A stretch of 64,000 bases of DNA from Mycobacteriales bacterium (GTDB lineage Bacteria; Actinomycetota; Actinomycetes; JAFAQI01), in assembly GCA_035690365.1 (NCBI GenBank), contig DASSKP010000002.1, positions 10,983 through 74,982 of the forward strand, written 5' to 3'. The translations under genes and the position numbers were made by a program. The first letter of the stretch is position 1. Every line of letters begins with the position of its first letter. The notes under the pieces were generated by a model. The model was not told the DNA's origin, searched no databases, and saw only the letters and a list, made by a program, of their open reading frames with translations. This document shows positions 11,918 to 41,658 of the stretch, in pieces.

Positions 11918-11933
11918 CCGGACTCCTCTCACG

Positions 11934-12557: not shown

Positions 12558-12562
12558 CGCGG

Positions 12563-13351: not shown

Positions 13352-13354
13352 GGC

Positions 13355-14625
<1,271 letters not shown>

Positions 14626-14650
14626 ATCCCGCTCCGAGGGGCTTTCGGCT

Positions 14651-18897: not shown

Positions 18898-19646
18898 GCG
18901 GCAGGCTCGAAGGCAAGGTCGCGCTGGTCAGCGGCGGCTCCCGCGGCATGGGCGCGGCGACCGTGCGGCAGTTCCACGCCGAGGGTGCGTCCGTCGTCGC
19001 AGCCGACCTCCTCGACGACGACGGCAAGGCGCTGGCCGATGAGCTCGGCGACCGGGTTCGGTTCGTCCACCTCGACGTGACCTCCGAGGAGCAGTGGCTG
19101 GCAGCGGTCGAGCAGACCGAGCGCGAGTTCGGCAAGCTCGACGTGCTCGTCAACAACGCCGGCATCCTGAAGTTCAACGCCGTCGCCGACACACCGCTCG
19201 ACGAGTTCCGCCAGGTCATCGACGTCAATCTCGTCGGTGTCTTCCTCGGCATGAAGGCGGGCATCCCCGCGCTAAAGCGCGCCGGCGGTGGCTCGATCGT
19301 CAACCTGTCGTCGACAGAAGGCCTCGGCGCGACGGTGTTCTGCGGCGCCTACACCGCGAGCAAGTTCGGCGTCCGTGGCCTCACCAAGGTCGGCGCGCTC
19401 GAGTACGGCCCGGACCGCATCCGCTGCAACTCCGTGCACCCCGGCGGCATCGACACCCCGATGACCCGCGCGGTCATGGACGCGGATGGCCGCAAGTACG
19501 TCGCCAAGAAGGTGCCGCTGGGCCGGATGGGCACAGCCGAGGACGTGGCGAACGTCATCACGTTCCTCGCCAGCGATGAGTCGTCGTACTGCAACGGTGG
19601 CGAGTTCGTCGTCGACGGTGGCGTCACGTCGAGTGCGGGTTTCTAG
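18894..19646 (+). CDS. SDR, 3-alpha(or 20-beta)-hydroxysteroid dehydrogenase-like
   Basis: GTG 18894 overlaps the previous stop. Motifs are GKVALVSGGSRGMGAA, NNAG and YTASKFGVRGLTK (YxxxK). It is very similar to the FabG3-type hydroxysteroid dehydrogenase as recalled. Confidence 0.85.
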   Translation: MSGRLEGKVALVSGGSRGMGAATVRQFHAEGASVVAADLLDDDGKALADELGDRVRFVHLDVTSEEQWLAAVEQTEREFGKLDVLVNNAGILKFNAVADTPLDEFRQVIDVNLVGVFLGMKAGIPALKRAGGGSIVNLSSTEGLGATVFCGAYTASKFGVRGLTKVGALEYGPDRIRCNSVHPGGIDTPMTRAVMDADGRKYVAKKVPLGRMGTAEDVANVITFLASDESSYCNGGEFVVDGGVTSSAGF

Positions 19647-19658
19647 GAGAGGCCGGGC

Positions 19659-20834
19659 ATGAGGATCGCCTACACCGACGACCAGCTCGCTCTGCGCGAC
19701 GAGCTGCGTGCCTACTTCGCCGAGCTCGTCACGCCGGAGGTCGCGGCGGAGATGGCGCAGGGCGAGATGGGCGGCAAGAAGTGCCTGGAGGCCGTCGCGC
19801 AGATGGGCAAGGACGGCTGGCTCGGGGTCGGCTGGCCGAAGGAGTACGGCGGTCGCGGCTTCGGACCGATGGAGCAGTTCGTCTTCTACGACGAGGCACA
19901 GCGCGCCGGGGCTCCGGTGCCGTTCCTGACGATCAACACCGTCGGCCCGGCGCTCATGCAGTTCGCGTCCGACGAGGTCAAGAACGACATCCTGCCGCGA
20001 ATCCTGCAGGGCCAGTGCTTCTTCTCGATCGGCTACTCCGAGCCGCAGGCCGGCACCGACCTCGCGGGGCTGAAGACGCGCGCGGTGCGCGACGGCGACG
20101 AGTGGGTCATCAACGGCCAGAAGATCTACACGAGCCTGACCGACCACGCCGACTACATCTGGCTCGCGTGCCGCACCAACCCGGATGCGAGCAAGCACAA
20201 GGGCATCAGCATCATCCTCGTCCCGACGTCGAGTGAGGGCTTCTCCTACACACCGATCCGCACGATCGGCGACGCGACGACCTACGCGACGTACTACCAG
20301 GACGTCCGGGTGCCGGTCGCCAACACCGTCGGGGAGATCGACGGTGGCTGGACGGTCATCACGACGCAGCTCAACTACGAGCGCATCTCGCTCGCCTCGC
20401 CGGCGATCCTCGAGCGCAACTACCTCGAGACCCGGCGCTGGGCACAGGAGACCAAGCTGCCCGACGGTCGTCGCGTCATCGACCAGGAGTGGGTGCAGGT
20501 CCACCTGGCCAAGGTGCACGCCCGCCTCGAGGCGCTGCGGCTGCTCAACTGGAAGAACATCTGGCAGGACAGCGTCGGGAAGGTCAGCATCGCTGACTCC
20601 TCCGGCGTGAAGGTCTACGGCACGACGACCTACTGCGAGTGCTACGGCTTGCTGCTCGAGGTGCTCGGTGCGGGAGGCATCCTCAAGCGCACATCACCCG
20701 GATCGGTGCTGGCCGGCCGGGTCGAGCGGGCCTATCGGGGCACGCTGATCCTCACCTTCGGCGGCGGCACCAACGAGATCCAGCGCGACCTGATCGCCAT
20801 CTTCGGCCTCAACATGCCGCGATCGCTGCGGTAG
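19659..20834 (+). CDS. fadE26: Acyl-CoA dehydrogenase, alpha subunit of a heteromeric steroid ACAD (FadE26/ChsE4-like)
   Basis: MRIAYTDDQLALRDELRAYF...GWPKEYGG...FSIGYSEPQAGTDLAGLKTRAVRDGDEWVINGQKIYTS...LTFGGGTNEIQRD parallels the M. tuberculosis FadE26 sequence as recalled. Confidence 0.8.
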   Translation: MRIAYTDDQLALRDELRAYFAELVTPEVAAEMAQGEMGGKKCLEAVAQMGKDGWLGVGWPKEYGGRGFGPMEQFVFYDEAQRAGAPVPFLTINTVGPALMQFASDEVKNDILPRILQGQCFFSIGYSEPQAGTDLAGLKTRAVRDGDEWVINGQKIYTSLTDHADYIWLACRTNPDASKHKGISIILVPTSSEGFSYTPIRTIGDATTYATYYQDVRVPVANTVGEIDGGWTVITTQLNYERISLASPAILERNYLETRRWAQETKLPDGRRVIDQEWVQVHLAKVHARLEALRLLNWKNIWQDSVGKVSIADSSGVKVYGTTTYCECYGLLLEVLGAGGILKRTSPGSVLAGRVERAYRGTLILTFGGGTNEIQRDLIAIFGLNMPRSLR

Positions 20835-20842
20835 GAGACGTC

Positions 20843-21919
20843 ATGGACTTCGGACTGACTGACGACCAGAAGTCGTTGCGCGCGCTCGCCCGCGAGATCC
20901 TCGCGGACGTCGCCACCCATGACCACCTGAAGGACCTCGAGTCCGCCGGCTGGTCGGTGTTCGACCGCGACCTGTGGCAGAAGCTGGCTGCCGCCGGCAT
21001 CACCGGCATCGCCGTGCCGGAGGCGCAGGGCGGTGGTGGTCTCGGCTTCCTCGAGCTGTCACTGGTCTTCGAGGAGGTCGGCCGTACGGTCGCGCCGGTC
21101 CCCGCGGTGCCGACACTCACCACGGCGTTCGTCCTCGGTGCGCACAAGGTCGCGACCGACCTGCTCGGTGGTGTCGCCGACGGCTCGACGATCGTCACGA
21201 CCGCCTTCGAGGGCGAGGTGCTGGCCAGCCGGGACGGGGCCGACTACGTCCTGACCGGCGAGGCGCCGTTCGTGCCGTACGGCGCCGAAGCCGACCTGGT
21301 CGTCGTTCCCGCGTTGTTCGGCGAGGGGCCGATCGCGGGCCTCATCCGGCGGGGCGCAAGCGGCGTCACCGTCACGGAGCTCCAGACGACCAACCGTGAG
21401 CCGCAGGCTCTGCTGGTGCTGGACGGCGCACGGGTCGCGGCGGCCGACGTCGTGACCGACGCCGACGACCTCCTGCAGGACCTCCGGCTGCACACCACGT
21501 CGGCGCTCTGCTCGGTGGCCGCAGGTGTGTGCCAGGCCGCGCTCGACATGACCGCCAAGCACACGGCCACCCGCGAGCAGTTCGGCAAGCCGATCGCGTC
21601 GTTCCAGGCGGTCGGCCAGCGCGCTGCCGATGCCTACATCGACACCGAGATGGTGCGGCTGACCGCGCTGCAGGCTGCCTGGCGTCTGTCCGAGGGCTGG
21701 CCGGCGACGGAAGAGGTCGCGGTCGCGAAGTTCTGGGCCGGCGACGGCGGCATGCGCGCTTTGCACGCCTGTCAGCACCTGCACGGCGGTCTCGGTGTCG
21801 ATCTCGACTACCCGCTGCACCGCTACTTCCTCTGGGGCAAGCAGATCGAGCACGAGCTCGGGACGCCGACCCGTCAGCTCATCGCACTCGGGGCGCACCT
21901 CGCGCAGACGCCGGTCTGA
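20843..21919 (+). CDS. fadE27: Acyl-CoA dehydrogenase, beta subunit partner (FadE27/ChsE5-like)
   Basis: ATG 20843 lies within ORF 20639..21919. It has the ACAD fold (REQFGKPIASFQAVGQRAADAY...) and sits immediately after the FadE26-like gene, the arrangement of alpha2beta2 steroid ACADs. Confidence 0.75.
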   Translation: MDFGLTDDQKSLRALAREILADVATHDHLKDLESAGWSVFDRDLWQKLAAAGITGIAVPEAQGGGGLGFLELSLVFEEVGRTVAPVPAVPTLTTAFVLGAHKVATDLLGGVADGSTIVTTAFEGEVLASRDGADYVLTGEAPFVPYGAEADLVVVPALFGEGPIAGLIRRGASGVTVTELQTTNREPQALLVLDGARVAAADVVTDADDLLQDLRLHTTSALCSVAAGVCQAALDMTAKHTATREQFGKPIASFQAVGQRAADAYIDTEMVRLTALQAAWRLSEGWPATEEVAVAKFWAGDGGMRALHACQHLHGGLGVDLDYPLHRYFLWGKQIEHELGTPTRQLIALGAHLAQTPV

Positions 21920-21948
21920 CCGGCACGGTCAGGTAGGGAAAGGACGTC

Positions 21949-23550
21949 GTGGACTTCAACCTCGCCGACATCTTCGAGTCGGTCGCCGACACGGTCCCGG
22001 ACCGCGAGGCGCTGATCTTCGGCGACCGCCGGCTGACCTACGCCGAGCTCGAGAGCCGGGCCAACCGGCTCGCGCACCACTTCCTCGACGTCGGCGTGAA
22101 GCCGGGCGACCACATCGGCCTGCAGCTCTACAACTGCACGGAGTACGTCGAGGCGATGATCGCCTGCTTCAAGGTTCGTGCAGTGCCGGTCAACGTCAAC
22201 TACCGCTACGTCGAGGACGAGCTGGCCTACCTGTTCAACGACGCCGACCTCGTTGCGGTGCTCGTCGACACGGAGTTCACCGACCGGATCAGCGGCGTCC
22301 GTGCTCGTACGCCGATGCTGCGGCATGTCATCACCGTCGGGAACGGTCCGCGGCCGGACGGCGCGGTCGATTACGACGACGCGCTCGCCGCGAGCAAGGA
22401 AGTCCGCGGCTTCGACCCTCGATCGCCCGACGACCTCTACGTCATCTACACCGGCGGCACGACCGGCATGCCCAAGGGCGTGATGTGGCGGCAGGAGGAC
22501 CTCTTCTTCGCCGGCATGGGCGGCGCCGACCCGGTCGGGACCCCGGTGTCCACCCCGGAGGAGGTCGCCGAACGGTTGGCGACCAGGGGCGTCATCAACA
22601 TGTTCCCGGTCGCTCCGCTGATGCACGGCGCGGCCCAGCTCGCGACGTGGATCGGCTTCCTGCAGGGCGCGAAGGTCATGTTGGTGCGCAAGTTCGAGCC
22701 GGTCGACGTCATCGACACCGCGTCTCGCGAGAAGGCGCACTCGATGTCGATCGTCGGCGACGCGATGGCGCGGCCGCTGGCGGAGGCGCTGGAGGGGCCG
22801 CGCAAGGGTGCCGACCTGTCGTCGTTGTTCGCGATCAGCTCGGCCGGCGCGATTCTGTCCGCCGCGGTGCGCGACAAGCTGCAGTCGCTGCTGCCCAACG
22901 TGATGCTGCTCGACAACTTCGGCGCATCGGAGACCGGCTTCCAGGGCACCGCGGCCGCCGGCTCCAGCCCGGACAAGGGACTGCGCTTCAGCGTCAACCA
23001 GCGGACCGCGGTGCTCGACGAGCACCTCAAGCCGATCGCGCCGGGGTCCGGCGTGATCGGCCGGGTGGCGCAGCGCGGGCACGTGCCGCTCGGTTACTAC
23101 AAGGACGAGAAGAAGACCGCCGACAGCTTCGTGACCATCGACGGTGAGCGCTGGGTTCTCCTCGGCGACATGGCCACCGTCGAGGCGGACGGCAACATCG
23201 CGGTGCTCGGCCGGGGCGCGGTGTGCATCAACACCGGTGGCGAGAAGGTCTACCCCGAAGAGGTCGAGGCGGTCCTGAAAGCCCACCCGGCCGTTTATGA
23301 CGCCATCGTGGCGGGTGTTCCGGATGACCGCTTCGGTCAGCGGGTCGCTGCCGTCGTACAGCTTCGTGACGGGGTGGCCGCAGACGAAGCCGAGCTCATC
23401 GCGCACGCCCGGGCGCACGTCGCCGGCTACAAGGCGCCGAAATCGGTGGTCCTGGTGCCGGAGATTCGCCGCTCACCGAGCGGGAAGGCTGACTACCCTT
23501 GGGCCGCGCGAGTGGCCCTCGAGAGCGCTTCGACAACGACAGGGAGCTGA
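21949..23550 (+). CDS. fadD19: Steroid/fatty acyl-CoA ligase, FadD19-like
   Basis: LTYAELESRANRLAHH, VNVNYRYVEDELAYLFNDADLVA, YTGGTTGMPKGVMWRQEDL, YYKDEKKTADSF, GGEKVYPEEVEAVLKAHP and GYKAPKS...RSPSGKADYPWA track the M. tuberculosis FadD19 sequence as recalled. Confidence 0.8.
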   Translation: MDFNLADIFESVADTVPDREALIFGDRRLTYAELESRANRLAHHFLDVGVKPGDHIGLQLYNCTEYVEAMIACFKVRAVPVNVNYRYVEDELAYLFNDADLVAVLVDTEFTDRISGVRARTPMLRHVITVGNGPRPDGAVDYDDALAASKEVRGFDPRSPDDLYVIYTGGTTGMPKGVMWRQEDLFFAGMGGADPVGTPVSTPEEVAERLATRGVINMFPVAPLMHGAAQLATWIGFLQGAKVMLVRKFEPVDVIDTASREKAHSMSIVGDAMARPLAEALEGPRKGADLSSLFAISSAGAILSAAVRDKLQSLLPNVMLLDNFGASETGFQGTAAAGSSPDKGLRFSVNQRTAVLDEHLKPIAPGSGVIGRVAQRGHVPLGYYKDEKKTADSFVTIDGERWVLLGDMATVEADGNIAVLGRGAVCINTGGEKVYPEEVEAVLKAHPAVYDAIVAGVPDDRFGQRVAAVVQLRDGVAADEAELIAHARAHVAGYKAPKSVVLVPEIRRSPSGKADYPWAARVALESASTTTGS

Positions 23551-23553
23551 CCC

Positions 23554-24180
23554 GTGTCCGGCGAGATGGCGACGGTGCGGTCGATTCCCGCGTCGCAGCT
23601 CGCCCGCCGTGAACGCATCCTCGACGCCGCGATGGAGCTGGCGACCGACGGCGGGTACGACGCCGTGCAGATGCGCGAGGTCGCGGAGCGCGCCGACGTG
23701 GCGCTCGGCACCCTCTACCGCTACTTCCCGTCGAAGGTGCACCTGCTCGTCGCGGCCATGGGCCGCACGTTCCACACCCTGCAGGAGAGCGTGCGCGTCG
23801 ACGGCTCCGACGGCACACCGCAGGAGCGGGTCTACCGCGTCGTCGCTGCAGTGACCCGCTATCTCGCGCGGCACCGTCGGTTGTCCGGCGCGATGATCCG
23901 CGCGCTGATGAGCGCCGACACCGAAGCCGCGCGCGAGGTCGAGGAGGTCGGCGAGATGCTCGTCGGCATCATCGCGGCGGCGCACCGCGACCCGGAGGCG
24001 GCCGTGCCCACGCCGGCGGAGAGCGAGCACGACGCCCTCGTCGCCCACGTCATCGGCAAGGTCTGGTTGACCGACGTCGTGACGCTGCTGTCCGGACGTA
24101 TGACGGTGTCACAGGTCCTCGAAGACCTCGAGGCCACGATCGCTCTGGTCATGCCCCCGTCGCGACCGGGGAGTGGCTGA
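23554..24180 (+). CDS. kstR: TetR family repressor KstR
   Basis: RRERILDAAMELATDGGYDAVQMREVAERADVALGTLYRYFPSKVHLLVAAMG is nearly the KstR (Rv3574) HTH region as recalled. Matching operator boxes are present in the window. Confidence 0.85.
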   Translation: MSGEMATVRSIPASQLARRERILDAAMELATDGGYDAVQMREVAERADVALGTLYRYFPSKVHLLVAAMGRTFHTLQESVRVDGSDGTPQERVYRVVAAVTRYLARHRRLSGAMIRALMSADTEAAREVEEVGEMLVGIIAAAHRDPEAAVPTPAESEHDALVAHVIGKVWLTDVVTLLSGRMTVSQVLEDLEATIALVMPPSRPGSG

Positions 24181-24409
24181 CCAGGTAGTCCACCAGCGTC
24201 GTGAGGGATCCGACGCGGGCATAGTCGTCCTCACGGATCTCGACGCCGGTCGAGTCGTGGAGCAGCTCGACGAGGTTGAGGAAGTCGAGCGAGTCCAGGT
24301 CCATCTCCTCCCGGAACGGCGCGTCGCCGTCCACGGTGGCGATGTCGACCTCCGGGGCGATCGACCCAAGGGCTGCGGCGACCGCTGCTGTGGCTTCGGT
24401 GGGATTCAT
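24149..24409 (-). CDS. Acyl carrier protein (PP-binding), 86 aa
   Basis: The DLDSLDFLNLVELL phosphopantetheine attachment motif is present, and the composition is acidic. The start codon overlaps the E2 stop (ATGA). The 3-prime end overlaps the kstR 3-prime end by 32 nt. Confidence 0.8.
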   Translation of the reverse strand: MNPTEATAAVAAALGSIAPEVDIATVDGDAPFREEMDLDSLDFLNLVELLHDSTGVEIREDDYARVGSLTTLVDYLVSHSPVATGA

Positions 24410-25767
24410 AGCTTCTCCGGTGACTGGAGGAGGTCGTCGAGGGCCGCGAGGTAGCGGCTCCCGGCATGTCCGTCGGTGGCTCGGTGGTCACCGGACAGGG
24501 TCGCGGTGACCGTCGGCCGGGCGGCGAGCATCCCGCCGCTCGCCCATGGCCGCTCGACGATGCGTCCGAGCCCGACCAGCGCGACCTGCGGCGGGAAGAT
24601 GACACCGAGGACCGACTCGGCACCGTTGTCGCCGAGGTTGGTGACGGTGAGCGTGCCGTCGGTCATCTCCGTACGACGAAGGCGGCCGGACCGGGCGCGC
24701 GTGACCACGTCGCGAAGCCCCTTCATCAGCGTGTCGAGGTCGAGGATGTCGGCATCCAGGATGGCCGGCGCGACGAGCCCGGACGGTCGCAGCGACACCG
24801 CGACGCCGAGGTGGACGTGGTCGCACCGCTCGAGGTGGTCGTCGACCCAGAAGCCGTTCAGCTCGGGGACGGCCCGCGCGGCCAGCGCGCTCGCCTTCAG
24901 CAGCAGCGCCGCGGGCACGAGCCGCTCGGAGACCGGCCGGCGGGTGTTGACGTCGCGCATCCAGGACAGCGCGGCGGAAAGGTCGATCGTCGTCGTGACG
25001 TAGTAGTGCGGAATCTCGCGCTTCGACCTGGCCATCAGCTCGCCGATGGCGCGGCGCATGGCGGCGTTGCGGTCCGCCGCCGAGGTCTCGGCCGGGACCG
25101 TCACCGTGGGCGTCGGCGGCTGCTGCGGCGCCTCAGCATGCGTCGCCTCCGCCTCAGGCGTTGAAGGTGCGTTGCGTGCGGCAGCGGCGGCGTCGACGTC
25201 AGCCACGGTGACCGATCCGTTCGGACCGCTGCCGGCAACGGTGTCGATGGCGATGCCGAGGTCGAGGGCCCGCCGGCGGGCGAGCGGTGAGGCCGGCACC
25301 CGGCGGCCGGGTGCGGCCGTGTCGGGACGCGGGAGCGGAACGGCGACTCGCGCCGCCTCGACGTCTGCTCTGGTGACGACGCCGTCCGGACCCGTGCCGT
25401 TGACCGTCGACACGTCGATGCCGGCCGTGTGCGCGAGATGGCGGACGAGCGGGGACGCGACAGCGGGCGCTGCCGGCGCTGCCGGTGCTGCCGGTGCTGC
25501 CGGTGTTGGCGCTGCGACGGCCGGCGCCGCTGCCCCGTCGCCGAAGCGGGCCAGTGGCGCGCCGACGGGGACCCGGGTGCCCGGCGGCACGAGCAGCTCC
25601 GCAACCACCCCGTCTTCGAAGCACTCGACTTCGATCGCCGCCTTGTCGGTGTCGACCACCGCGACGATGTCCCCGCGGTGCACCTCGTCACCCGGCTTCA
25701 CGAGCCATTCGAGAAGCGTGCCCTCCGTCATGTCGGCGCCGAGCGAGGGCATCACGAACTCACCCAT
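24406..25767 (-). CDS. Dihydrolipoamide acyltransferase (E2) of a 2-oxoacid/acetoin dehydrogenase-type complex
   Basis: The start is [16 protein letters not shown]. The lipoyl-Lys motif is [12 protein letters not shown], followed by an Ala/Pro linker. There are two peripheral-subunit-binding domains ([26 protein letters not shown] and [26 protein letters not shown]). The catalytic motif is SGDHRATDG. Confidence 0.85.
25469..25504. repeat. Four tandem 9-bp units (GCTGCCGGN) encoding the (PAA)n linker of the E2
   Basis: Units lie at 25469-25477, 25478-25486, 25487-25495 and 25496-25504. They translate on the minus strand to [12 protein letters not shown] between the lipoyl and PSBD domains. 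Confidence 0.7.
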
Positions 25768-26740
25768 GAGCGCCCACCACCTCACGCGCGGCGGCGACGA
25801 CCCGATCGGCACTCGGTAGTGCAGCCTGTTCGAGCTGGTGCGCGTAGGGCATCGGCACCTCGGCGCTGCACACCCGGGCGACCGGTGCGTCGAGCTCGTA
25901 GAAGGCACCTTCGATGATGCGGGCCGACACCTCCGCGGAGATGCTGCCGCTGCGCCAGCCTTCGTCGACGATCACGGCCCGGTGGGTCCGGGAGACCGAC
26001 TCGAGCACGGTCGCCTCGTCGAGCGGTCGCAACGTGCGCAGGTCGATGACCTCCGCATCGATGCCGTCGTCCTGCAGGGTTGTCGCAGCCTCAACCGTCA
26101 TGGGCAACGTGCCGCCATAGGTGATCAGCGAGACGTCGGTCCCGTGGCGCCGTACGGCCGCGCGGTCGAGGTCGACCGGTCCGGCGTCGTCGTCGAGCGA
26201 GCCGGACATCGGGTAGAGGGACGCGTGCTCGAAGATCAGCACCGGGTCGGGGTCGGCGAGCGCTGTGGCGAGCATGCCCCGCGCGTCCTCGAGGGTCGCC
26301 GGCGTCACGACGCGCAGTCCGGGGATGTGCGCGAACCAGCCGTCGAGGGAGTGCGAGTGCTGAGCCGCCACCTGTCGGCCCCCGCCGGTGGGGATGCGGA
26401 GAACCAACGGCACCGCGCACTGCCCGCCGGACATGTGCAGCAGCGTGGCGGCGTTGTTCATGATCTGGTCGAGTGCCAGCAGGCTGAAGTTGACCGTCAT
26501 GATCTCGACGATCGGTCGCATGCCGGCCATCGCGGCGCCGACGCCTGCCCCGACAAAGGCGGACTCCGACAGCGGGGCGTCGCGGATGCGGTCCGGCCCG
26601 AACTGCTCCAGCAGCCCGAGGCTGACGGCGAAGCAGCCGCCGTAGCGACCGACGTCCTCACCCATCAGGAAGACGCGGTCGTCGCTTTCCAGCGCCTCCG
26701 ACAGAGCGGACCGGATGGCCTCGCGATAGGTCGTGTTCAT
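25760..26740 (-). CDS. E1 component beta subunit (transketolase-like pyrimidine-binding)
   Basis: [43 protein letters not shown]..., typical of PdhB/AcoB/BkdB. The start overlaps the E1-alpha stop (ATGA). Confidence 0.9.
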
Positions 26741-27734
26741 GTCCCTGCTCCCGCGTCGCTGTAGACCCAGCGGGTCAGGCTCGTCACCGGTTCCTCGTGA
26801 CCCGACTGCGCGTAGTCGACGGCGTCAGTGATCTCGGCAGCGACCTCGTCCTCGATCGCGGTGACGTCGGCGTCCGTCAGGCTGCCCGCAGCGCGCATTC
26901 GCTCGACGAACGCCGGCAGCGGGTCGCGCTGCATCCACTGCCGGATCTCGTCCTTGGTGCGGTACCGATCCGGGTCGTAGAGCGAGTGCGCGCGGAAGCG
27001 ATAGGTGCGCAGCTCCAGGAAGTGCGGGCCCCCTCCTGCCCGCACTGCCTCGGCCGCGGCACGGGTGGCGTCCTCGACAGCGAGAACGTCCATCCCGTCG
27101 ACGCTCCATGCCGGCATCTCGTAGCTGCTCGCCCGCAAGGCCACGTCGGTCTGTGACTGGGCGCGTTCGATCGCGGTGCCCATCGCGTAGAGGTTGTTCT
27201 CGCAGAGGAACAACACAGGGAGCCGCCAGAGTGCGGCCAGGTTGAGGGTCTCGTGGAACTCACCTTCGGCCACGGCGCCGTCGCCGAAGAAGCACGCCGT
27301 CACCGCATCGCGGCCGCGCATGTCGTCCGCCAGCGCAAGCCCGAGCGCCAGCGGCAACCCGCCGGCCACGATGGCGTTGCCGCCGTAGAAGCGGCTGCCG
27401 ACGTCGAAGAGGTGCATCGAACCGCCGCGCCCGCCGCTGCATCCCTCGACCTTGCCGAACATCTCCGCCATCACCGCGCGGGTGGGGATCCCGCGGGCGA
27501 GCGCGTGACCGTGCTCCCGGTACGTCGACACGACAGCGTCGTCAGGCGTCAACGCACGCATCGCGCCGGCGGCGACGGCCTCCTCGCCGATGTAGAGATG
27601 CACGAAGCCGCGGATCGTGCCGGCGCTGTAGAGCTGCACGCACTTCTCCTCGAAGCGCCGGATGAGAGTCATCTGCCGGAGCAGCGCCAGACCGCGCTCG
27701 CGGTCAAGTGCCCGGGTGGTGTCAACCGTTGTCG

Positions 27735-27738
<4 letters not shown>
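26737..27738 (-). CDS. E1 component alpha subunit (ThDP-dependent dehydrogenase)
   Basis: [16 protein letters not shown], the ThDP motif [31 protein letters not shown] and YRFRAHS are typical of PdhA/AcoA. The start overlaps the ligase stop (ATGA). Confidence 0.9.
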
Positions 27739-29510
<1,772 letters not shown>

Positions 29511-29521
29511 GCTGACTCCTC

Positions 29522-30574
29522 TTATGCGACCGTGACATCCGCGTCGAGATAGACGTCCTGGACGGCGTGCAGCAGCGAGATGCCATCGGCGGTCGGCCGC
29601 TGGAACGCCTTGCGGCCGGTGATCAGGCCGGTGCCGCCGGCACGCTTGTTGATGACGGCTGTCCGTACGACGGCCGCGAGGTCGTCTGTCCCTGAGGACG
29701 CGCCGCCACTGTTGATGAGCGAGACCCGGCCGAGGTAGCAGTTGGCGACCTGCCAGCGGGTGAGGTCGATCGGGTTGTCCGTGGTGAGCTCGTCGTAGAC
29801 CGCCGGGCTCGTCCGTCCGAAGCCGAGGGCGACGTAGCCGCCGTTGTTCTGCGGCTGCTTCTGCTTGATGATGTCGGCTTCCAGCGTCGCGCCGAGATGG
29901 TTGGCCTGCCCGGTGAGGTCAGCGGAGACCGCGTAGTCGACCCCGTCGTGGGTGAAGGCTGCGTTGCGCAGGTAGCACCACAGGACGGTGAACATGCCGA
30001 GCTGGTGGGCCTCAGCGAACGCGTCCCGGACCTCCTGAAGCTGCCGGTCGGACTCCGGTGAGCCGAAGTAGATGGTCGCTCCCACCCCGGCCGCGCCGAG
30101 GTCGAACGCCTGCCCGACCGTCGCGAACATCACCTGGTCGTGATGGTTCGGGTAGGTCAGCAGCTCGTTGTGGTTGAGCTTGACGATGAACGGAATCCGG
30201 TGGGCGTAGCGGCGCGAGACCGCGCCGAGGACCCCCAGCGTGCTGGCAACGCCGTTGCAGCCGCCGTCGATGGCCAGCTCCACGATGTTCGCGGGGTCGA
30301 AGTAGCGAGGGTTCGGCGCGAAGGAAGCCGCCGCCGAGTGCTCGACTCCCTGGTCGACCGGCAACAGCGACAGGTAGCCGGTGCCGGCCAGGCGCCCGTG
30401 CCCGAACAGCGCCTGCAGGTTGCGGAGGACCTGCGGTGAACGGTCCGTCCCGGCGACCACACGGCTCACGAAGTCCGGCCCCGGCAGGTGCAGGTCCTCC
30501 TTCGGCAGCCCCTTGCAGACATGGGCGAGCAGCGTCTCCGCCTCGTCCCCGAGCAGCGTCGCGATCTCGATCAT
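29522..30574 (-). CDS. fbaB: Class I fructose-bisphosphate aldolase (FbaB/DhnA type), 350 aa
   Basis: From ATG 30572-30574 ([16 protein letters not shown]...). [65 protein letters not shown] and [19 protein letters not shown] align almost continuously with E. coli FbaB as recalled, and the length is the same. Confidence 0.85.
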
Positions 30575-30735
30575 GCCGAAAGCCTGCTGTCGGAGGCATT
30601 TCGCGGCTAGGGCACTTGGTCCCATCCGTCGCCGACGACCTCGTGCTGAGCGAGGACTTTCGGCTCTAGCGACGACGTCTGGCCACGCTCACTTTGAACG
30701 TAGTCGGCTGGTTCAGCCGCAGGGAGGTGGCTGCA

Positions 30736-32199
30736 GTGCATACGTTCGAGAAAACCCTGGAGTGGTTCGCGAACAACATCTTCAATGAGGTCGCGATCCT
30801 CATCGCCATCATCGTCCTGATCGGACTGGCGCTGCAGAAGAAGCGCGGTGACGAGATCATGTCCGGGGCAATCCGGGCAGCGGTCGGCGTCTATGCGATG
30901 TTCATCGGCATCGCCGTGTTCGTCGGCGGGTTGAGCGCCTTCCAGGCGATCACCGCCAGCGCCTTCGGCAAGACGCCACCGTCGTCGTTGCCGAAGTACT
31001 CGCTCGACAAGTTCATGGCCGACAAGGGAGCGGTCATCGCGATGGTCATCACCGTCGCGTTCCTGATGCACATCGCCATCGTGCGGCTGTTCAGGCTCAA
31101 GTTCGTCTACCTGACCGGCCACCTGATGTTCTGGATGAGCGTTGTCGTCACCGCCTCGCTGTCCGCCGGTTGGGCAGGCATGGGCAAGTGGACGATGATC
31201 CTCGTCGGCGCTGCGATCGTGGCGACGTACTGGACAGTCCAGCCGATCGTGCTCCAGAAGAAGATGGAGCGGGTCATCGGCTCTGACGACTGGGGCTACG
31301 GCCACACCAGCGCATCGGCGGCGTATCTGGGTGCAGCGATCGGCAAGCGGATCGGTGACCCGGAGCGGCAGGACACCGAGAAGCTGCACATGCCGCGTTG
31401 GCTGTCCTTCTTCAAGGACGTCAACGTCGCCACTGCCGTCGTGATCATGGCGATCATGCTCATCGCGATGGCCTTCGCGGACCCGAAGGTCTACGACGCT
31501 CAGGCCGCGACCTACAGCGCCACCATGAACCCGTGGGTGTGGGCAGTCGTGTCCGCGCTGCGCTTCGCAGGCGGGATCGCCGTCCTGCTGTTCGGTGTGC
31601 GGATGTTCCTCGCCGAGATCGTCCCGGCATTCAAGGGCATCAGCGACAAGGTCATCCCGGGCGCACGTCCGGCCCTGGACTGCCCGACGGTGTTCCCGTA
31701 CTCGCCCACCGCCGTGATGATCGGCTTCCTGTCGAGCACCGCGGTCTTCCTGGTCATGATGGCGCTCTTCCCGGCACTCGGCTGGTTCGGTGGATTCGTC
31801 CTCGTGCCGCCGATGATCATGCTCTTCTTCCCGGGTGGCGCGGCCGGCGTGTTCGGCAACAAGCACGGTGGTTGGCCGGGCGCGGTCGCAGGCGGTGCAG
31901 TCAACGGCCTGTTCCTCGCCTTTGGTCAGGCGATCACGTGGAACCTGCTGGTGCACAACGGCCCGCAGATGGCGACGCTCGCCGACCCCGACTGGTACAT
32001 CGTGAACTGGGCGATCCTGTTCGTCCGGCACCCGCTGGGCTTCGCTGACGGATACCAGGGCTTCGTGACGGTGTTCGGCTGGATCTTCACCGCCGTCGTC
32101 ATCTACGGCCTCTACTCGCTCTACAAGCGGCTCACGGGCCCGAAGGCGATTGTCCTGCCGTCCGCCCCGGCCGACGCGCGAGAGCTGACGAAGGTCTGA
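30736..32199 (+). CDS. PTS EIIC, L-ascorbate (UlaA/SgaT) family permease
   Basis: GTG 30736 lies 8 nt after AGGGAGG. It is a multi-TM protein with UlaA-like blocks (LTGHLMFWMS, GVRMFLAEIVPAFKGISDKVIPGA.PALDC, FFPGGAAGVFGNKHGGW). Confidence 0.85.
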   Translation: MHTFEKTLEWFANNIFNEVAILIAIIVLIGLALQKKRGDEIMSGAIRAAVGVYAMFIGIAVFVGGLSAFQAITASAFGKTPPSSLPKYSLDKFMADKGAVIAMVITVAFLMHIAIVRLFRLKFVYLTGHLMFWMSVVVTASLSAGWAGMGKWTMILVGAAIVATYWTVQPIVLQKKMERVIGSDDWGYGHTSASAAYLGAAIGKRIGDPERQDTEKLHMPRWLSFFKDVNVATAVVIMAIMLIAMAFADPKVYDAQAATYSATMNPWVWAVVSALRFAGGIAVLLFGVRMFLAEIVPAFKGISDKVIPGARPALDCPTVFPYSPTAVMIGFLSSTAVFLVMMALFPALGWFGGFVLVPPMIMLFFPGGAAGVFGNKHGGWPGAVAGGAVNGLFLAFGQAITWNLLVHNGPQMATLADPDWYIVNWAILFVRHPLGFADGYQGFVTVFGWIFTAVVIYGLYSLYKRLTGPKAIVLPSAPADARELTKV

Positions 32200-32223
32200 C
32201 GAAGGTCTGACGTCTGTCGTCAG
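32185..32223. repeat. 11-bp tandem duplication (CTGACGAAGGT x2 plus CTGACG) spanning the EIIC stop codon, ending in a CTGACG-N5-CGTCAG inverted repeat
   Basis: The units lie at 32185-32195 and 32196-32206, with a partial unit at 32207-32212. The inverted repeat is 32207-32212 / 32218-32223. Confidence 0.6.
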
Positions 32224-32245
32224 GCTCTGAGAAGGGACGCAGGAA

Positions 32246-32563
32246 ATGTCTGGACGCAAGGGCGTGGATGAGGACCTCGAGGTCCTGACCATCTGCGGCG
32301 TGGGCATGGGCACCTCGCTGATCATGCGAATGACCGCCGAGGACGTGTTCAAGCAGCTGGGCATCCGCGCCCACGTCCAGGCCACCGACGTGTCGTCGGC
32401 GCGCGGAATGCACGCCGACATGCTGATCGGTCAGGCCATGCACACCGAGGAGTTCGTCGGACGTGGACCCGTGGTCGTGACCGTGGAGAACTTCATCGAC
32501 AAGAACGAGATGACCGCCAAGATTCTCGCCGGACTGGAGTCAGCAGGATGGCGAGCGGCGTAG
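32246..32563 (+). CDS. PTS EIIB (UlaB/lactose-type IIB)
   Basis: It is 105 aa. The phospho-Cys loop is LTICGVGMGTSLIM. Confidence 0.8.
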   Translation: MSGRKGVDEDLEVLTICGVGMGTSLIMRMTAEDVFKQLGIRAHVQATDVSSARGMHADMLIGQAMHTEEFVGRGPVVVTVENFIDKNEMTAKILAGLESAGWRAA

Positions 32564-33009
32564 GGACCGCCACCTGCGTCTCGGCGCAGGTGCAGGTGCC
32601 CGCACAGGATTGGGCGGCAGCCGTCAGGGCCGCCGCCCGATTGCTGTCCGCAGCCGGCGCCGTCTCCGAGCAGTACGTCGACCGGTGCGTCGAGATCGTC
32701 CGGGAACACGGGCCGTACATCGTCGTCGCTCCCGGCATCGCGTTGGCGCACGCCCGACCTGAGGACGGCGCACACGCGCTCGGTCTGGCGGCCGTCCACC
32801 TAGCGGCGCCGGTCCGGTTCGGCCACCCGAGCTTCGACCCCGTGGACGTCGTACTCGCTTTCAGTTCGCCCGACCGCGACGCCCACGTGGGGCTCGTGGC
32901 CGCACTTGCCCGGGCGCTCACCGCCGGTCTCGCGGACCGGTTGCGCGCCGCGCCCACAGATGACGCAGCCACCGCGCTGCTCCGAGAGGTGACGGACGAT
33001 GACCGATAG
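32548..33009 (+). CDS. PTS EIIA (EIIA-2, UlaC/mannitol-fructose type)
   Basis: It has YVDRCVEIVREHGPYIVVAPGIALAHARPEDG, with a phospho-His in the IALAHAR context. It overlaps the IIB 3-prime end by 16 nt. Confidence 0.8.
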   Translation: MASGVGTATCVSAQVQVPAQDWAAAVRAAARLLSAAGAVSEQYVDRCVEIVREHGPYIVVAPGIALAHARPEDGAHALGLAAVHLAAPVRFGHPSFDPVDVVLAFSSPDRDAHVGLVAALARALTAGLADRLRAAPTDDAATALLREVTDDDR

Positions 33010-33724
33010 CAGCTTCGGCGAGCAGATGCGCTCGCATCTCGCCATGGTCGAGCAGACCAATGCTGAGGCGCTGGACGGCGTCGCCGGCATGATGCTCGAC
33101 GTCGTACGTCGCGACGGGCTGATCCACGTCGGTGGCACCGGCCACTCGTGCGCGCTGATGCTCGAGGGCTTCTACCGCGCCGGTGGCCTGGCATGCGTCC
33201 AGCCGCTCTACCACCCGGCTTTGCTGCCGTTGCACGGCGGCGAGGACAGCACGCTCGCCGAGAAGACGAGCGGGTTCGCGAAGATCCTGGTGGACCGCTA
33301 CTCGCCGTCCGCAGAGGATCTCGCCTTCGTGTTCTCCAACTCCGGTGTCAACGCGGTGCCGGTGGAGCTGGCGGACGAGCTCAAGCGGGCCGGCACCCCG
33401 GTCGTCGCCGTCGTCTCCATGACTCACCTGAAGGCCGCTCCGCTGCGCGGAGACCACAAGATCGACGCGGTGGCGGACGTCGTCATCAACACGCTGGTGC
33501 CGTACGGCGACGCCGCCTACCCGACGGCGGACGGGACGCCCACCGCCGGCCTGTCGTCGCTGTCGTGCGTCTTCGTCTGGAACCTGCTGCTGACCCGGCT
33601 CGCCGACCTCGCCGCAACCGCGGGAGTTCGGCTGCCGATCTTCACCAGCTCCAACGTGGCCGGCGGCGCCGAACGCAACGTCGAGCTGTTCAAGCACTAC
33701 CGGCCGCGGGTGCGCGCGCTGTGA
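32999..33724 (+). CDS. SIS-domain protein, UPF0309-like
   Basis: The GLIHVGGTGHSCALMLEGFYRAGGLACVQPLYHPALL pattern matches the UPF0309 SIS family as recalled. It overlaps the EIIA stop by 11 nt. Confidence 0.7.
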   Translation: MTDSSFGEQMRSHLAMVEQTNAEALDGVAGMMLDVVRRDGLIHVGGTGHSCALMLEGFYRAGGLACVQPLYHPALLPLHGGEDSTLAEKTSGFAKILVDRYSPSAEDLAFVFSNSGVNAVPVELADELKRAGTPVVAVVSMTHLKAAPLRGDHKIDAVADVVINTLVPYGDAAYPTADGTPTAGLSSLSCVFVWNLLLTRLADLAATAGVRLPIFTSSNVAGGAERNVELFKHYRPRVRAL

Positions 33725-34746
33725 GCACGCTGCTCGCGCCCTCCCGCATGGCCGCGGACATGGCCGAGCAGCCTGCTGTCCTTCGGCGGTTCGCCGCGCG
33801 CCGTGCGGGTCTGCACGTCCAGATCGGCCGGGTCATCCCGGAGAAGCTGGCCGGTGTCGCCTTTGTCGGGCGTGGCTCGTCGGCGAACGCGGCGACCGTG
33901 GGCAAGGTCATGGTCGAGCTCGCGTCGGGACGTCCCACGGTGATGGTGTCGCCGAGCCTCGACCGGCTCTACGACGCCCACACCGACTATCGGGGATGGC
34001 TCGCTGTCGGGCTTAGCCTGTCGGGCCGGACACCGGAGGTGGCGTCGACGCTTCAGGACCTGCACTCCCGCGGTGCCGCGACGATTGCCGTCACCGATGA
34101 CGGGGAGTCCGTTCTCGCCGACGGAGCGGATCTCACGATCTGGCTCGGCACCGGCCCGGAGCAGGCGGTGCCGACGACAAAAGGCTTCACCGCGCAGCTG
34201 GCCACGCTGATCGTCCTCGCCGAGACACTCGGCGACTGCTCGCTGCCGGTCGACGCGTGGGCCGCCGTGGCCGAAGCCGCGCACAGCGTCCTCGACGACG
34301 GGCCGGCCGCCGAGGCGGCAGCCCGAGGGCTCCTGGACGTGACGCACCTGTCGGTCGTCGGGGCAGGGGCCTACGTCGGGATAGCGGACGAGATCGCGCT
34401 GAAGTTCCAGGAGGCGGCGCTGGTTGCGGCGTCTGCGCATTCGTCGGCGTCGTACCGACATGGGCCCATCGCGATGGCCGGCCCGGGTCATCCGCTCGTC
34501 GCGATCGTGGGCCCTGGGCGGGCCGGTGCGGAAACGGCCCGGCTGGCGTCCGAAGTAGCGGCGCGCGGTGCTCCGGTGCTCGTCATTGGTGACCGCGGCA
34601 AGCTCCCCGTGCCCAACACCCTGCCGGAGTGGCTGGCGACCATCCCCACCGTCGTGCGGGGACAGCAGCTCGCGCTGGCGCTCGCGGTCGCGAAGGGGAT
34701 CGACCCCGACCAGCCGCCGACACTGTCGAAGGTGACGCTGACATGA
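33721..34746 (+). CDS. Double-SIS sugar-phosphate isomerase/deaminase (GlmS C-terminal / AgaS / FrlB-like)
   Basis: GTG 33721 overlaps the previous stop (GTGA). It has GRGSSANAA, SLSGRTPEV, VPTTKGFTAQLA and a second SIS half (VVGAGAYVGIADEIALKFQE). Confidence 0.75.
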   Translation: MSTLLAPSRMAADMAEQPAVLRRFAARRAGLHVQIGRVIPEKLAGVAFVGRGSSANAATVGKVMVELASGRPTVMVSPSLDRLYDAHTDYRGWLAVGLSLSGRTPEVASTLQDLHSRGAATIAVTDDGESVLADGADLTIWLGTGPEQAVPTTKGFTAQLATLIVLAETLGDCSLPVDAWAAVAEAAHSVLDDGPAAEAAARGLLDVTHLSVVGAGAYVGIADEIALKFQEAALVAASAHSSASYRHGPIAMAGPGHPLVAIVGPGRAGAETARLASEVAARGAPVLVIGDRGKLPVPNTLPEWLATIPTVVRGQQLALALAVAKGIDPDQPPTLSKVTLT

Positions 34747-35006
34747 CAGTCGCGAGCCCCGTACGCCGTGAGGTGACCGTCACCGCCGAGGCGGGGCTGC
34801 ACGCGCGTCCCGCCGCCGACTTCGCGGCCGCCGCGGGGCGCTACGCCGCCGAGGTGCACGTCACCAAAGGCGAGCGCACTGCCGACGGCAAGTCGGTGTT
34901 GCTGCTGTTGACTCTCGACGTGCGTCGCGGCGACAGCGTTGTCATCGAAGCGACCGGCTCCGATGCTCTCGCCGCGGTTGACACCCTGTGTGGCTTGGTG
35001 ACGTGA
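34743..35006 (+). CDS. ptsH: Phosphocarrier protein HPr
   Basis: It is 87 aa. The active-site His context is AEAGLHARPAADF. ATG overlaps the upstream stop (ATGA). Confidence 0.85.
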   Translation: MTVASPVRREVTVTAEAGLHARPAADFAAAAGRYAAEVHVTKGERTADGKSVLLLLTLDVRRGDSVVIEATGSDALAAVDTLCGLVT

Positions 35007-41630: not shown

Positions 41631-41658
41631 AGCGGCAAGTCTGCCAGTCCTCGCGGAT

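Follow-up and report, generated by a model that had tools for sequence, protein, structure and literature searches.

The question raised by this locus is why the E1 and E2 components of a pyruvate dehydrogenase (PDH)-like complex should be encoded in one coupled run with an aldolase, an acetate ligase and a small acyl carrier protein (ACP), and what such a carrier would receive. Within the window, the whole 64,000-nucleotide stretch of a Mycobacteriales MAG that was analysed, six minus-strand genes at 24149-30574 (Table 1) are connected by three ATGA overlaps (27735-27738, 26737-26740 and 24406-24409), one 8-nt overlap between E2 and E1beta (ATGGGTGA, 25760-25767) and one 11-nt gap; where the ACP start overlaps the E2 stop the sequence reads CTATGA. 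The initial annotation had described a run of six coupled genes with these junctions, which the ORFs and overlaps match, and the domains it predicted were all recovered by Pfam and NCBIfam HMM searches. A sequence scan of the minus strand found no terminator-like site inside the run, and the divergent region at 30575-30693 holds no sigma-70-like promoter match. We also agree with the annotation that neither E3 nor PKS/NRPS genes are present in the window: the E3 redox-disulfide motif CxxxxC(I/V/T/L/M)P(S/T)K is absent from all six frames, which leaves an E3 that may lie elsewhere in the genome, and no PKS/NRPS was found by Pfam searches of the larger ORFs or by a six-frame scan for KS and NRPS carrier motifs. 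Around the cassette, the window has PTS and steroid-type catabolic genes, and the closest gene of fatty-acid type, a KAS III-like ORF, lies about 18 kb off.

Table 1. Features of the locus, in window coordinates.
Feature	Positions	Strand	Basis or remark
ACP gene	24149-24409	minus	ORF call, Pfam
E2 gene	24406-25767	minus	ORF call, Pfam
E1beta gene	25760-26740	minus	ORF call, Pfam and NCBIfam
E1alpha gene	26737-27738	minus	ORF call, Pfam and NCBIfam
AcsA-type ligase gene	27735-29510	minus	ORF call, Pfam and NCBIfam
11-nt spacer between fbaB and acsA	29511-29521	minus	Direct read, GAGGAGTCAGC; GAGGAG Shine-Dalgarno / ribosome-binding site
FbaB/DhnA-type class I fructose-bisphosphate aldolase gene	29522-30574	minus	ORF call, Pfam and NCBIfam
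Divergent intergenic region between fbaB and PTS EIIC	30575-30693		Presumed promoter region

A genome scan seeded with E2 alone returned 80 loci from at least 10 phyla, covering Actinomycetota, Acidobacteriota, Binatota, Verrucomicrobiota, Desulfobacterota/Deltaproteobacteria, Alpha- and Betaproteobacteria, Gemmatimonadota, Chloroflexota and Nitrospirota. The ACP gene lies directly 3' of E2 in 79 of the 80, the remaining locus being cut by a contig end, and the five genes from the ligase to the ACP are collinear in nearly all non-truncated loci; loci seeded with the ACP recovered the same cassette. At all four cassette junctions the genes mostly overlap by 4 or 8 nt, the step from E2 to ACP being -4 in 64 of 73 loci (by a looser count, start and stop overlap in 73 of 79). 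The recurrence of these overlaps from phylum to phylum puts the arrangement far beyond chance. The AcsA-type ligase is translationally coupled and always the first cassette gene, and E3 is absent from 78/80 loci, with E3-like ORFs in 2/80. No E2-ACP or ligase-ACP fusion was seen among the top matches.

The conserved unit is thus acsA-pdhA-pdhB-E2-acp, five genes and not six. The initial annotation had made its proposal depend on the ACP staying next to E2, and the ACP does so, with the overlap and an invariant Ser; its placing of the ligase in the set likewise stands, the ligase being an integral member across loci. The expected co-occurrence of E1, E2, ligase, ACP and FbaB holds for the five and fails for FbaB, which is lacking nearly everywhere else, only distant DeoC-type aldolases (29-37% identity) being found in about five. 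The window aldolase belongs to the DeoC/FbaB type (NF006707, 626 versus 327 bits). In the closest relative, a sister MAG (L093) with an 83% identical ACP, PTS-FbaB-cassette synteny is kept, and about 840 bp with two small ORFs separate fbaB from acsA. FbaB is a lineage-specific, local addition outside the conserved cassette, and the view that FbaB and the PTS divergon are part of the module is not supported.

E1alpha, a ThDP-binding E1_dh protein (PF00676), passes the PDH_E1_alph_y equivalog TIGR03182 (448 versus 394 bits) and reaches 20-39 bits with transketolase models whose cut-offs are 488-682. E1beta, with Transket_pyr (PF02779) and Transketolase_C (PF02780) domains, scores 404 versus 321 bits with NF006667 and is 63-77% identical across phyla. 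The ligase, an AMP-binding protein, passes NF003313, the acetate--CoA ligase of the B. subtilis type (PRK04319), with 840 versus 729 bits, and in the PDB it is best matched by the 572-aa AcsA 9g79 (E 7e-153). Set against an E. coli Acs reference sequence that agrees in length and landmark residues, 66 orthologues of the cassette ligase all keep the equivalents of W414, K609 and R584. At the equivalent of R526, in the SGHRLG A8 hairpin of the pantetheine tunnel, 64 of the 66 have Leu or Met; the window ligase has Leu (SAGHLIG), and the Arg is present in the four best PDB homologues (9g79, 8rpk, 5u2a and 7mmz). The cassette ligase therefore resembles B. subtilis-type AcsA in its full-length alignment, its acetate-pocket Trp and its catalytic/acetylatable Lys in PxxxxGK, but differs in this Arg and in heading a PDH-ACP cassette. 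Basic residues are also kept at the equivalents of Acs R194 and R584, which we take to be the positions that bind the CoA 3'-phosphate, and since the acetate--CoA ligase equivalog is passed as well, the ligase may still use CoA. That the E1 scores as an ordinary pyruvate dehydrogenase and that the ligase keeps the acetate-pocket Trp both favour acetyl, from pyruvate or acetate, as the probable acyl group, over a C2 unit clipped from ketose phosphates.

Whereas both E1 subunits pass PDH family cut-offs, E2 passes none, which makes the acceptor-handling subunit the divergent one. It falls below all 17 NCBIfam equivalog models for E2p, E2o and E2b (best TIGR01349, 295 versus 445 bits), and its closest PDB relatives are mitochondrial-type E2p. 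By Pfam it carries a lipoyl domain (Lys42), two E3_binding or peripheral-subunit-binding domains (PSBDs) and a CAT-like 2-oxoacid_dh domain with DHRATDG. The lipoyl Lys and the DHRxxDG motif with the catalytic His are kept in 81/81 family members, and nearly all have a C-terminus of the form ...LLQxPExL, ending two residues short of human E2p. Since E2 retains one or two domains for E3/E1 binding and has lost none of the canonical catalytic residues, it may still deliver to CoA.

The ACP has 86 aa and a pI of 4.05, with Ser40 in DLDSLDF as the phosphopantetheine site. Its PP-binding match (PF00550) is modest at 31 bits, and it stays below every NCBIfam housekeeping ACP cut-off (best 34.7 versus 66; AcpM 19 versus 146); by these scores it does not appear to be a housekeeping FAS ACP of the AcpP/AcpM equivalog. 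Ser40 and Asp42 do not vary among 80 orthologues. The AF2 model (pLDDT 88) gives a FAS-type four-helix fold with a helix at 40-54 and a TM of 0.76-0.83 with AcpP-like chains, so that the protein combines a PP-binding domain, an invariant Ser that opens helix II, a predicted four-helix fold and an acidic character, as is expected of a carrier protein. The family comprises at least 6955 clusters at 90% identity, and each of the 120 listed is a stand-alone protein with a length of about 80-90 aa.

Transfer from an E2 to an ACP has precedent in QncN/L/M and SclQ1-4, which together with NapB/NapD/NapC are the glycolicacyl-ACP-forming systems of the tetrahydroisoquinoline and scleric acid pathways (PMC6335953). 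The comparison with Qnc and Nap drawn in the initial annotation is a fair one, as these systems also combine a ThDP-dependent E1-like enzyme, a lipoyl E2-like acyltransferase and a small, discrete acyl-receiving ACP, and the scl cluster, like the cassette, encodes the four parts as separate proteins (PMC6335953); the comparison is one of gene organisation as described. There are, however, several differences. Their C2 unit is proposed to come from ketose phosphates, whereas the cassette E1alpha and E1beta score as a true pyruvate dehydrogenase E1; they sit in NRPS-type biosynthetic gene clusters, whereas the cassette has no such cluster but stress and energy genes around it; the PPTase of the scl cluster and the KAS III of the Nap and dnacin clusters have no counterpart recurring beside the cassette; and the cassette differs further in the PSBDs of its E2 and in its obligate acetate ligase. 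Canonical PDH with a heterotetrameric E1 (mitochondrial, alphaproteobacterial or Gram-positive) shares E1alpha, E1beta and a lipoyl-PSBD-CAT-like E2 with the cassette, but not the lack of an E3 gene, the ACP coupled to E2 or the E2 below all equivalog cut-offs. In citrate lyase and malonate decarboxylase the CitD/MdcC ACP is the complex's own small acetyl-thioester carrier, and CitC is an ATP-dependent ligase that activates acetate. This is a functional analogy to a primary-metabolism complex with a private carrier and an acetate-charging ligase; the families are unrelated, the prosthetic group of CitD/MdcC is 2'-(5''-phosphoribosyl)-3'-dephospho-CoA, and no 2-oxoacid dehydrogenase component is involved. 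In agreement with the initial annotation, which knew of no pathway with this gene set, no description of the cassette was found in the literature searched.

In other genomes the flanks of the cassette are enriched in universal stress proteins (Usp), Hsp20, CBS proteins, P-type and V-type ATPases and nitroreductase, and further island neighbours are an M50-CBS protease, phosphoribosyltransferases, an NrdZ-like RNR and a ribosome hibernation factor. Usp genes occur in 24/80 loci and dormancy-type families near the cassette in 38 of the 59 long loci, and on plasmid p1 of S. fungicidicus the cassette is surrounded by a textbook hypoxia/dormancy stress island. Palindromes of the DosR/OsdR type, GGGNC-N4-GNCCC, stand upstream of acsA in 10 of 49 high-GC loci, compared with 1.1 expected (about 9-fold, p = 2.5e-7). 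Through these neighbours and palindromes the cassettes of other genomes resemble the DosR/DevR regulon of Mycobacterium and the OsdR regulon of Streptomyces; the window copy, in contrast, has neither, as Pfam searches of its larger ORFs revealed no stress-island neighbours and no such box lies near 29,500-30,700, with window-wide matches at chance level. The hypoxia context is therefore borrowed from other genomes and does not apply to the window copy. To our knowledge, the DosR regulon of M. tuberculosis does not include the cassette. A published account describes the OsdR motif and regulon, and the cassette was not found among the regulon entries examined in that source (PMC5069765).

As a whole, the cassette is best explained, though only tentatively, as a node of pyruvate and acetate metabolism that holds an acetyl thioester on a private carrier. 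The PDH-type E1alpha/E1beta would decarboxylate pyruvate and acetylate the lipoyl arm of E2, whose CAT-like domain would then acetylate the dedicated ACP, in its holo form, on the phosphopantetheine thiol; the ACP would serve as thioester carrier instead of or beside CoA. The acetate-specific AMP-forming ligase, acting on ACP or CoA, would link free acetate and ATP with this pool of acetyl thioester, and an E3 or other disulfide acceptor encoded elsewhere would re-oxidise the reduced lipoyl arm; flux would presumably run from pyruvate towards the carrier. In keeping with this reading, E2 is the divergent subunit, the ligase replaces the Arg of the pantetheine tunnel, E3 is lacking from nearly all loci, the cassette of Desulfotalea psychrophila is self-contained, and in locus L096 the gene 3' of the ACP encodes a CstA-type transporter, of a family that includes pyruvate transporters. 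An acyl-ACP-forming E1/E2 module is a reasonable reading because the adjacency of ACP and E2 is conserved and the ligase is integral. To that extent the proposal of the initial annotation stands, but its lipid or polyketide acceptor finds no support in the genomes: no ketosynthase, acyltransferase, PKS, NRPS, PPTase or lipid-acceptor gene recurs in the flanks of the 80 loci, and no acetyl-ACP consumer is encoded near the cassette. The place of the cassette in the hypoxia/dormancy stress islands of many genomes suggests that its role is probably pyruvate/acetate handling under limited respiration, whereas the copy in the Mycobacteriales MAG, lying behind a class I FBP aldolase and beside a PTS sugar operon, probably takes its pyruvate from sugar catabolism.

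The cassette could also be an ordinary second pyruvate dehydrogenase with an acetyl-CoA synthetase, both making acetyl-CoA, and the ACP an accessory and not the main acceptor. This is unlikely, yet much in the proteins speaks for it: both E1 subunits and the ligase score above the curated thresholds for PDH and acetate--CoA ligase, the lipoyl, PSBD and catalytic motifs of E2 are canonical, the ligase is still basic at the positions presumed to bind the CoA 3'-phosphate, and the RefSeq annotation of the cassette genes reads exactly so. The ACP might then be a regulator or scaffold that senses the acetyl-CoA/CoA ratio through acylation; its modelled fold resembles that of the mitochondrial ACPs with a role as structural subunits. 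Alternatively, it might donate octanoyl groups for lipoylation of E2. This account does not explain the choice of an ACP over E3 as the invariant coupled partner of E2 in at least 10 phyla, nor why only E2 has diverged so far as to miss every equivalog cut-off. As for octanoyl donation, the self-contained cassette of the strict anaerobe Desulfotalea psychrophila, on a conjugative plasmid, brings its own ATP-dependent lipoate-protein ligase in the gene that follows, and such an enzyme takes free lipoate as substrate and is not known to need octanoyl-ACP.

That the E1 instead takes ketose phosphates from FbaB and the PTS and clips off a glycolyl C2 unit, for delivery by the ACP to an unspecified lipid or polyketide pathway, as the glycolyl version of the initial proposal would have it, we regard as improbable. 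The Qnc- and Scl-like organisation, the aldolase 11 nt upstream of acsA, the synteny in the sister MAG and the distant aldolases near about five other cassettes are in keeping with it; against it stand the near-universal lack of FbaB and its uncoupling in the closest relative, the PDH equivalog passed by E1alpha, the invariant acetate-specific ligase, and flanks in which, unlike Qnc/Nap/Scl clusters, no KS, AT, NRPS or PPTase recurs. We give as little credence to an E3-independent generator of reductant, in which pyruvate-driven reduction of the E2 lipoyl arm would supply partners of the thiol peroxidase or disulfide-reductase kind, AhpD-like CMD proteins for example, and the ACP and ligase would only dispose of acetyl. 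Its model is the mycobacterial Lpd-DlaT-AhpD-AhpC system, and an AhpC/AhpD/SucB/Lpd system has been described (PMC5309233). The 78 loci without E3, the stress-island context and the CMD/AhpD-family genes found immediately 3' of the ACP gene at several loci (cluster 43; L094) would fit. CMD genes, however, are near the cassette in only about 5/80 loci, actinobacteria normally encode a housekeeping E3 elsewhere, and the need for a carrier protein is left unexplained. Finally, the modest PF00550 match and the 32-nt overlap of the ACP gene 3' end with a convergent TetR gene could suggest that an ACP beside a PDH operon is chance or an annotation artefact with no functional link. We give this virtually no weight, as it is refuted by the comparative data, with the ACP in 79/80 loci across phyla, its start/stop overlap and invariant Ser, a confident AF2 fold prediction and the same protein on 15 independent metagenomic contigs.

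The link between the ACP and the dehydrogenase genes is real and ancient. A scan seeded with E2 alone, taking one genome per species, gave 80 loci spread over Actinomycetota, Acidobacteriota, Binatota, Verrucomicrobiota, Desulfobacterota/Deltaproteobacteria, Alpha- and Betaproteobacteria, Gemmatimonadota, Chloroflexota and Nitrospirota, and the cassette is present in species of at least ten phyla. With the window proteins as tblastn queries, ligase, E1alpha, E1beta, E2 and ACP were found to be collinear in essentially all loci not cut by a contig end. Co-occurrence of the ACP with homologous E2 genes, which the initial annotation had put forward as a check on its reading, held in 79 of the 80 E2-seeded loci (tblastn), the single locus without ACP ending 124 bp past E2; three ACP-seeded loci hold the same five genes. 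The ligase to E1alpha junction is -4 in 52 of 75 loci, E1alpha to E1beta -4 in 59 of 76, E1beta to E2 -8 in 34 and -4 in 14 of 79, and E2 to ACP -4 in 64 of 73, all counted from the start codon closest to the upstream stop, which biases them slightly towards overlap. Between phyla the cassette proteins are 43-77% identical (tblastn), whereas the canonical E1/E2 paralogue present in one of the loci (L068) is merely 28-41% identical to them, which argues that the cassette forms its own orthologous group and has spread by horizontal transfer.

In Desulfotalea psychrophila the cassette is carried by a conjugative plasmid. The host, strain LSv54, is a sulfate reducer and strict anaerobe; its large MOBP plasmid holds the complete cassette (locus L092, 7844-14173) with a lipoate-protein ligase directly after it, and traI/traJ and toxin-antitoxin genes adjoin. 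Among the surveyed loci the lipoate ligase (LplA) occurs on the Desulfotalea plasmid only, and E3 is found in 2 of 80 loci, in one of them as part of the canonical paralogue; neither can be counted as a regular cassette member.

Reading of ORFs and junctions in the window reproduced exactly the six minus-strand genes described initially, and independent gene calls on identical metagenome contigs place the boundaries identically. On the minus strand, ATGA junctions lie at 27735-27738, 26737-26740 and 24406-24409, E1beta and E2 overlap in ATGGGTGA (25760-25767), and the 11-nt spacer at 29511-29521, GAGGAGTCAGC, is a Shine-Dalgarno sequence ahead of the ligase ATG. The final E2 codon, CTA, gives CTATGA at the E2/ACP junction; at 70% genomic GC this Leu codon would be expected to be uncommon. 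No hits came from scanning the window for Rfam families or tRNAs. Pfam and NCBIfam searches recovered all the domains proposed for these proteins, and four of the six pass curated family cut-offs (see table). The reported absence of E3 and PKS/NRPS genes is borne out by a search of the six window frames, in which no E3 disulfide, KS or NRPS motif was seen; the KAS III (FabH)-like ORF, about 18 kb from the ACP, is the sole fatty-acid-synthase-type gene seen in the window.

Genes and features of the window, with scores of the six coupled genes against family cut-offs
Feature	Position	Strand	Score against curated cut-off, or remark
Convergent operon	12563-24180		resembles steroid side-chain degradation genes
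TetR gene	23554-24180	+	shares 32 nt with the ACP gene at the 3' ends (24149-24180)
ACP	24149-24409	-	housekeeping ACP cut-offs not reached, score far lower
E2	24406-25767	-	no curated cut-off passed, best 295 vs 445 bits
E1beta	25760-26740	-	passed, 404 vs 321 bits
E1alpha	26737-27738	-	passed, 448 vs 394 bits
Ligase	27735-29510	-	passed, 840 vs 729 bits
FbaB aldolase	29522-30574	-	passed, 626 vs 327 bits
Divergent PTS operon	30694-37782		EIIC (GAT; galactitol/ascorbate type), IIB, IIA, two SIS proteins, Enzyme I, amidohydrolase
M50 peptidase	37820-38656		
BD-FAE/alpha-beta hydrolase	40377-41630	-	
WS/DGAT triacylglycerol/wax-ester synthase	41401-43161		
KAS III (FabH)-like ORF	48464-49558		
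Chromosomal backbone	52682-62632		leuS, comEA, comEC, holA-like ORF, lepA
comEA	55917-56723		
comEC	56720-58204		
Small ORF	59498-59770		probably rpsT
Unannotated 134-aa ORF	62638-63042	-	
Palindrome GGGCCGAAGGTCCC	63048-63061		DosR/OsdR-box type
GAF-ANTAR regulator gene	63061-63996	-	

The carrier protein has the predicted fold of a FAS-type ACP (pLDDT 88), and its Ser40, the phosphopantetheine site, and Asp42 are invariant in the cassette orthologues. A profile search of public data returned at least 6955 clusters at 90% identity, and each of the 120 matches listed is a stand-alone protein of 79-91 aa; likewise, a concatenated E2+ACP query found unfused E2s only among its best 120 matches. 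Four seemingly long ACP ORFs were dismissed as ORF-extension artefacts or, in one case, as read-through: in Nocardia sp. NPDC004860 (~11460-13000 of locus L052) the ACP frame runs into an MFS-like membrane protein to give a 513-aa ORF, for which loss of the stop codon, faulty assembly and a genuine fusion are the candidate explanations. To look for a consumer of the acyl-ACP, 5969 flank ORFs were clustered all-vs-all and 139 downstream ORFs went through a Pfam census; among the 143 families obtained, no KS, AT, PKS, NRPS, glycosyltransferase or PPTase was recurrent or enriched. On one metagenomic contig (L095, 9246-11090) a second AMP-binding enzyme of 614 aa with an AMP-binding_C_3 domain starts 4 nt before the ACP stop and is followed by a nicotinate phosphoribosyltransferase gene; it is possibly an extra enzyme for loading or unloading the ACP.

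The E1 and E2 proteins are of the PDH type with all catalytic residues present, and the lipoyl Lys and DHRxxDG motif of E2 are invariant in 81 sequences. Nearly all cassette E2s (L011-L090) end in LLQxPExL, two residues short of human E2p and shorter than canonical E2 cores, with a final Leu codon that ends in A and so forms the ATGA overlap (24406-24420 in the window). The extreme C-terminus of E2 is the contact that joins trimers into closed cores, and its deletion gives active trimers. The short end raises the question of whether cassette E2s form closed 24- or 60-mers, and we speculate that an open trimer would let the 9-kDa ACP reach the CoA side of the active-site channel. In the ligase, 64 of 66 cassette sequences have Leu or Met where E. 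coli Acs has R526, a position that is Arg in the four closest solved homologues. It lies within SAGHLIG (residues ~497-503 of the window ligase) in a hairpin adjoining the pantetheine tunnel, and its change may reflect adaptation in the thioester-forming half-reaction. Together with the short E2 end it may relate to a changed thiol substrate, a relation that we leave without a firm reading.

In other genomes, genes characteristic of actinobacterial dormancy/hypoxia regulons are over-represented beside the cassette. Near the cassette, in the 80 loci, are universal stress proteins (24 loci), M50 proteases with CBS domains (16), CBS/BON proteins (15), a phosphoribosyltransferase plus alpha/beta-hydrolase (14), P-type cation ATPases (12), Hsp20 (8), V/A-type ATPase operons (7), PNPOx-family proteins (7) and DUF2267 (6), and one or more dormancy-type neighbours are present in 38 of the 59 long loci. 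NrdZ-like ribonucleotide reductase, ribosome hibernation factor, NiFe-hydrogenase-like genes, malic enzyme and a GNAT fused with an ADP-forming acyl-CoA-synthetase-like domain also occur. On plasmid p1 of Streptomyces fungicidicus the cassette sits amid five universal stress protein genes, Hsp20, a nitroreductase, nicotinate phosphoribosyltransferase, alcohol dehydrogenase and a P-type ATPase. In Streptomyces sp. NPDC048710 (L012, 2476-5918) hydrogenase-like genes lie immediately upstream on the other strand (Oxidored_q6 small subunit, NAD-binding/FeS subunit, 4Fe-4S protein), a cluster also seen in two further loci (L060, L072). Within the 200 bp ahead of acsA, 10 of 49 high-GC loci carry a palindrome of the type GGGNC-N4-GNCCC, the form of the DosR/OsdR box (PMC5069765), against 1.1 expected (Poisson p = 2.5e-7). 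The window has no such box upstream of fbaB or acsA, and its cassette is flanked not by stress-island neighbours but by the PTS and catabolic operons instead.

Beyond gene content and context, what we say of function is inferred. The carrier protein, invariant at its attachment serine, is predicted to be made in step with E2, and an acetate-type AMP-forming ligase is predicted on the same message; neither an E3 nor a downstream consumer lies within the cassette. The acyl group would be acetyl, since by its scores E1 is a pyruvate enzyme, all 66 ligase sequences retain the acetate pocket equivalent to W414, and in one locus the ACP is followed by a CstA-type transporter, a family that includes pyruvate transporters. 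By analogy with QncL/QncM and SclQ4/SclQ1 (PMC6335953), and because E2 is the single diverged subunit, E2 would hand the acetyl group to the ACP. The ligase may act on the same carrier. Against its use of ACP count its passing of the acetate--CoA ligase equivalog and the basic residues kept at the R194 and R584 positions, which we take to bind the CoA 3'-phosphate.

A fermentative direction, from pyruvate to acetate with a gain of ATP, is attractive because of the stress-island context and because strict anaerobes carry the cassette; the data agree equally well with an acetyl-ACP pool into which acetate and pyruvate are assimilated. That the cassette is a private-carrier device for substrate-level phosphorylation in oxygen-starved cells we consider unlikely. 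Here E1/E2 would turn pyruvate into acetyl-S-ACP, not acetyl-CoA, and the hairpin-altered ligase, reversed on this insulated thioester pool, would convert AMP and PPi into ATP and release acetate. It would take its place beside the OsdR-regulon pyruvate phosphate dikinase, an enzyme that can also use AMP and PPi, and in some loci next to the adjoining hydrogenase-like and V/P-type ATPase genes. If true, soil actinobacteria, Nitrospira, acidobacteria and sulfate reducers would share a new fermentative means of ATP conservation.

The 2-oxoacid dehydrogenase complexes are textbook CoA-dependent machines, and to our knowledge their sole ACP-linked relatives belong to rare secondary-metabolite systems. 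Closest to the cassette in working are the Qnc/Nap/Scl glycolicacyl-ACP systems, but their defining context is a biosynthetic cluster, which the cassette is without, and its substrate probably differs too. By sequence the cassette is a member of the PDH E1/E2 superfamily; it departs from a PDH complex in that its E2 lies outside the equivalog and its operon is without E3. Here the ACP is translationally coupled to a PDH-type E2 as its invariant partner, and an acetate ligase accompanies them. We rate the cassette as a widespread and, to the extent of our searches, uncharacterised 2-oxoacid dehydrogenase of primary or stress metabolism that has its own carrier protein and ligase. RefSeq labels the genes acsA, pdhA, E1 beta, E2 and 'acyl carrier protein' and draws no link among them, and full-text literature searches found no description of the cassette; the Desulfotalea plasmid E1/E2 are listed only as putative cold-shock proteins, with the ACP not mentioned (PMC4224046). 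If the ACP is the acyl acceptor, this would be an unrecognised acetyl-ACP branch point in central carbon metabolism, with possible consequences for the handling of pyruvate and acetate in non-growing soil bacteria and mycobacterial relatives when oxygen or energy is limiting. Culturable hosts include Streptomyces fungicidicus, Kitasatospora, Arthrobacter and Desulfotalea.

The link to the ACP is the part of the initial interpretation that stands; feeding of the module by FbaB/PTS sugar phosphates and a lipid or polyketide destination are not supported. By tblastn, FbaB falls outside the conserved unit and occurs solely in the window lineage. The PTS-fbaB-cassette-TetR synteny is common to the window and its sister MAG (L093; ACP 83% identical), in which two small ORFs, one on the opposite strand, lie in the ~840 bp between FbaB and the downstream acsA, which argues that the 11-nt coupling in the window is recent and local. 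Distant DeoC-type aldolases are close to the cassette in about 5 loci. The convergent operon encodes an enoyl-CoA hydratase, thiolases, a P450, two ChsH2-like OB-fold hydratase subunits, an Ltp2-like thiolase, an SDR, two acyl-CoA dehydrogenases, an AMP-ligase and the TetR regulator. Tgs-type enzymes and M50 proteases are members of mycobacterial dormancy regulons; the window copies have no evident tie to the cassette.

The backbone at the far end is ordinary, and a strong negative AT skew at 56-58 kb falls on comEA/comEC. The palindrome beyond it lies just upstream of the 134-aa ORF and at the 3' end of the GAF-ANTAR regulator gene; across the window such palindromes are about as frequent as expected by chance. 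M. tuberculosis Rv1734c, of the DosR regulon, may resemble an E2 C-terminal fragment.
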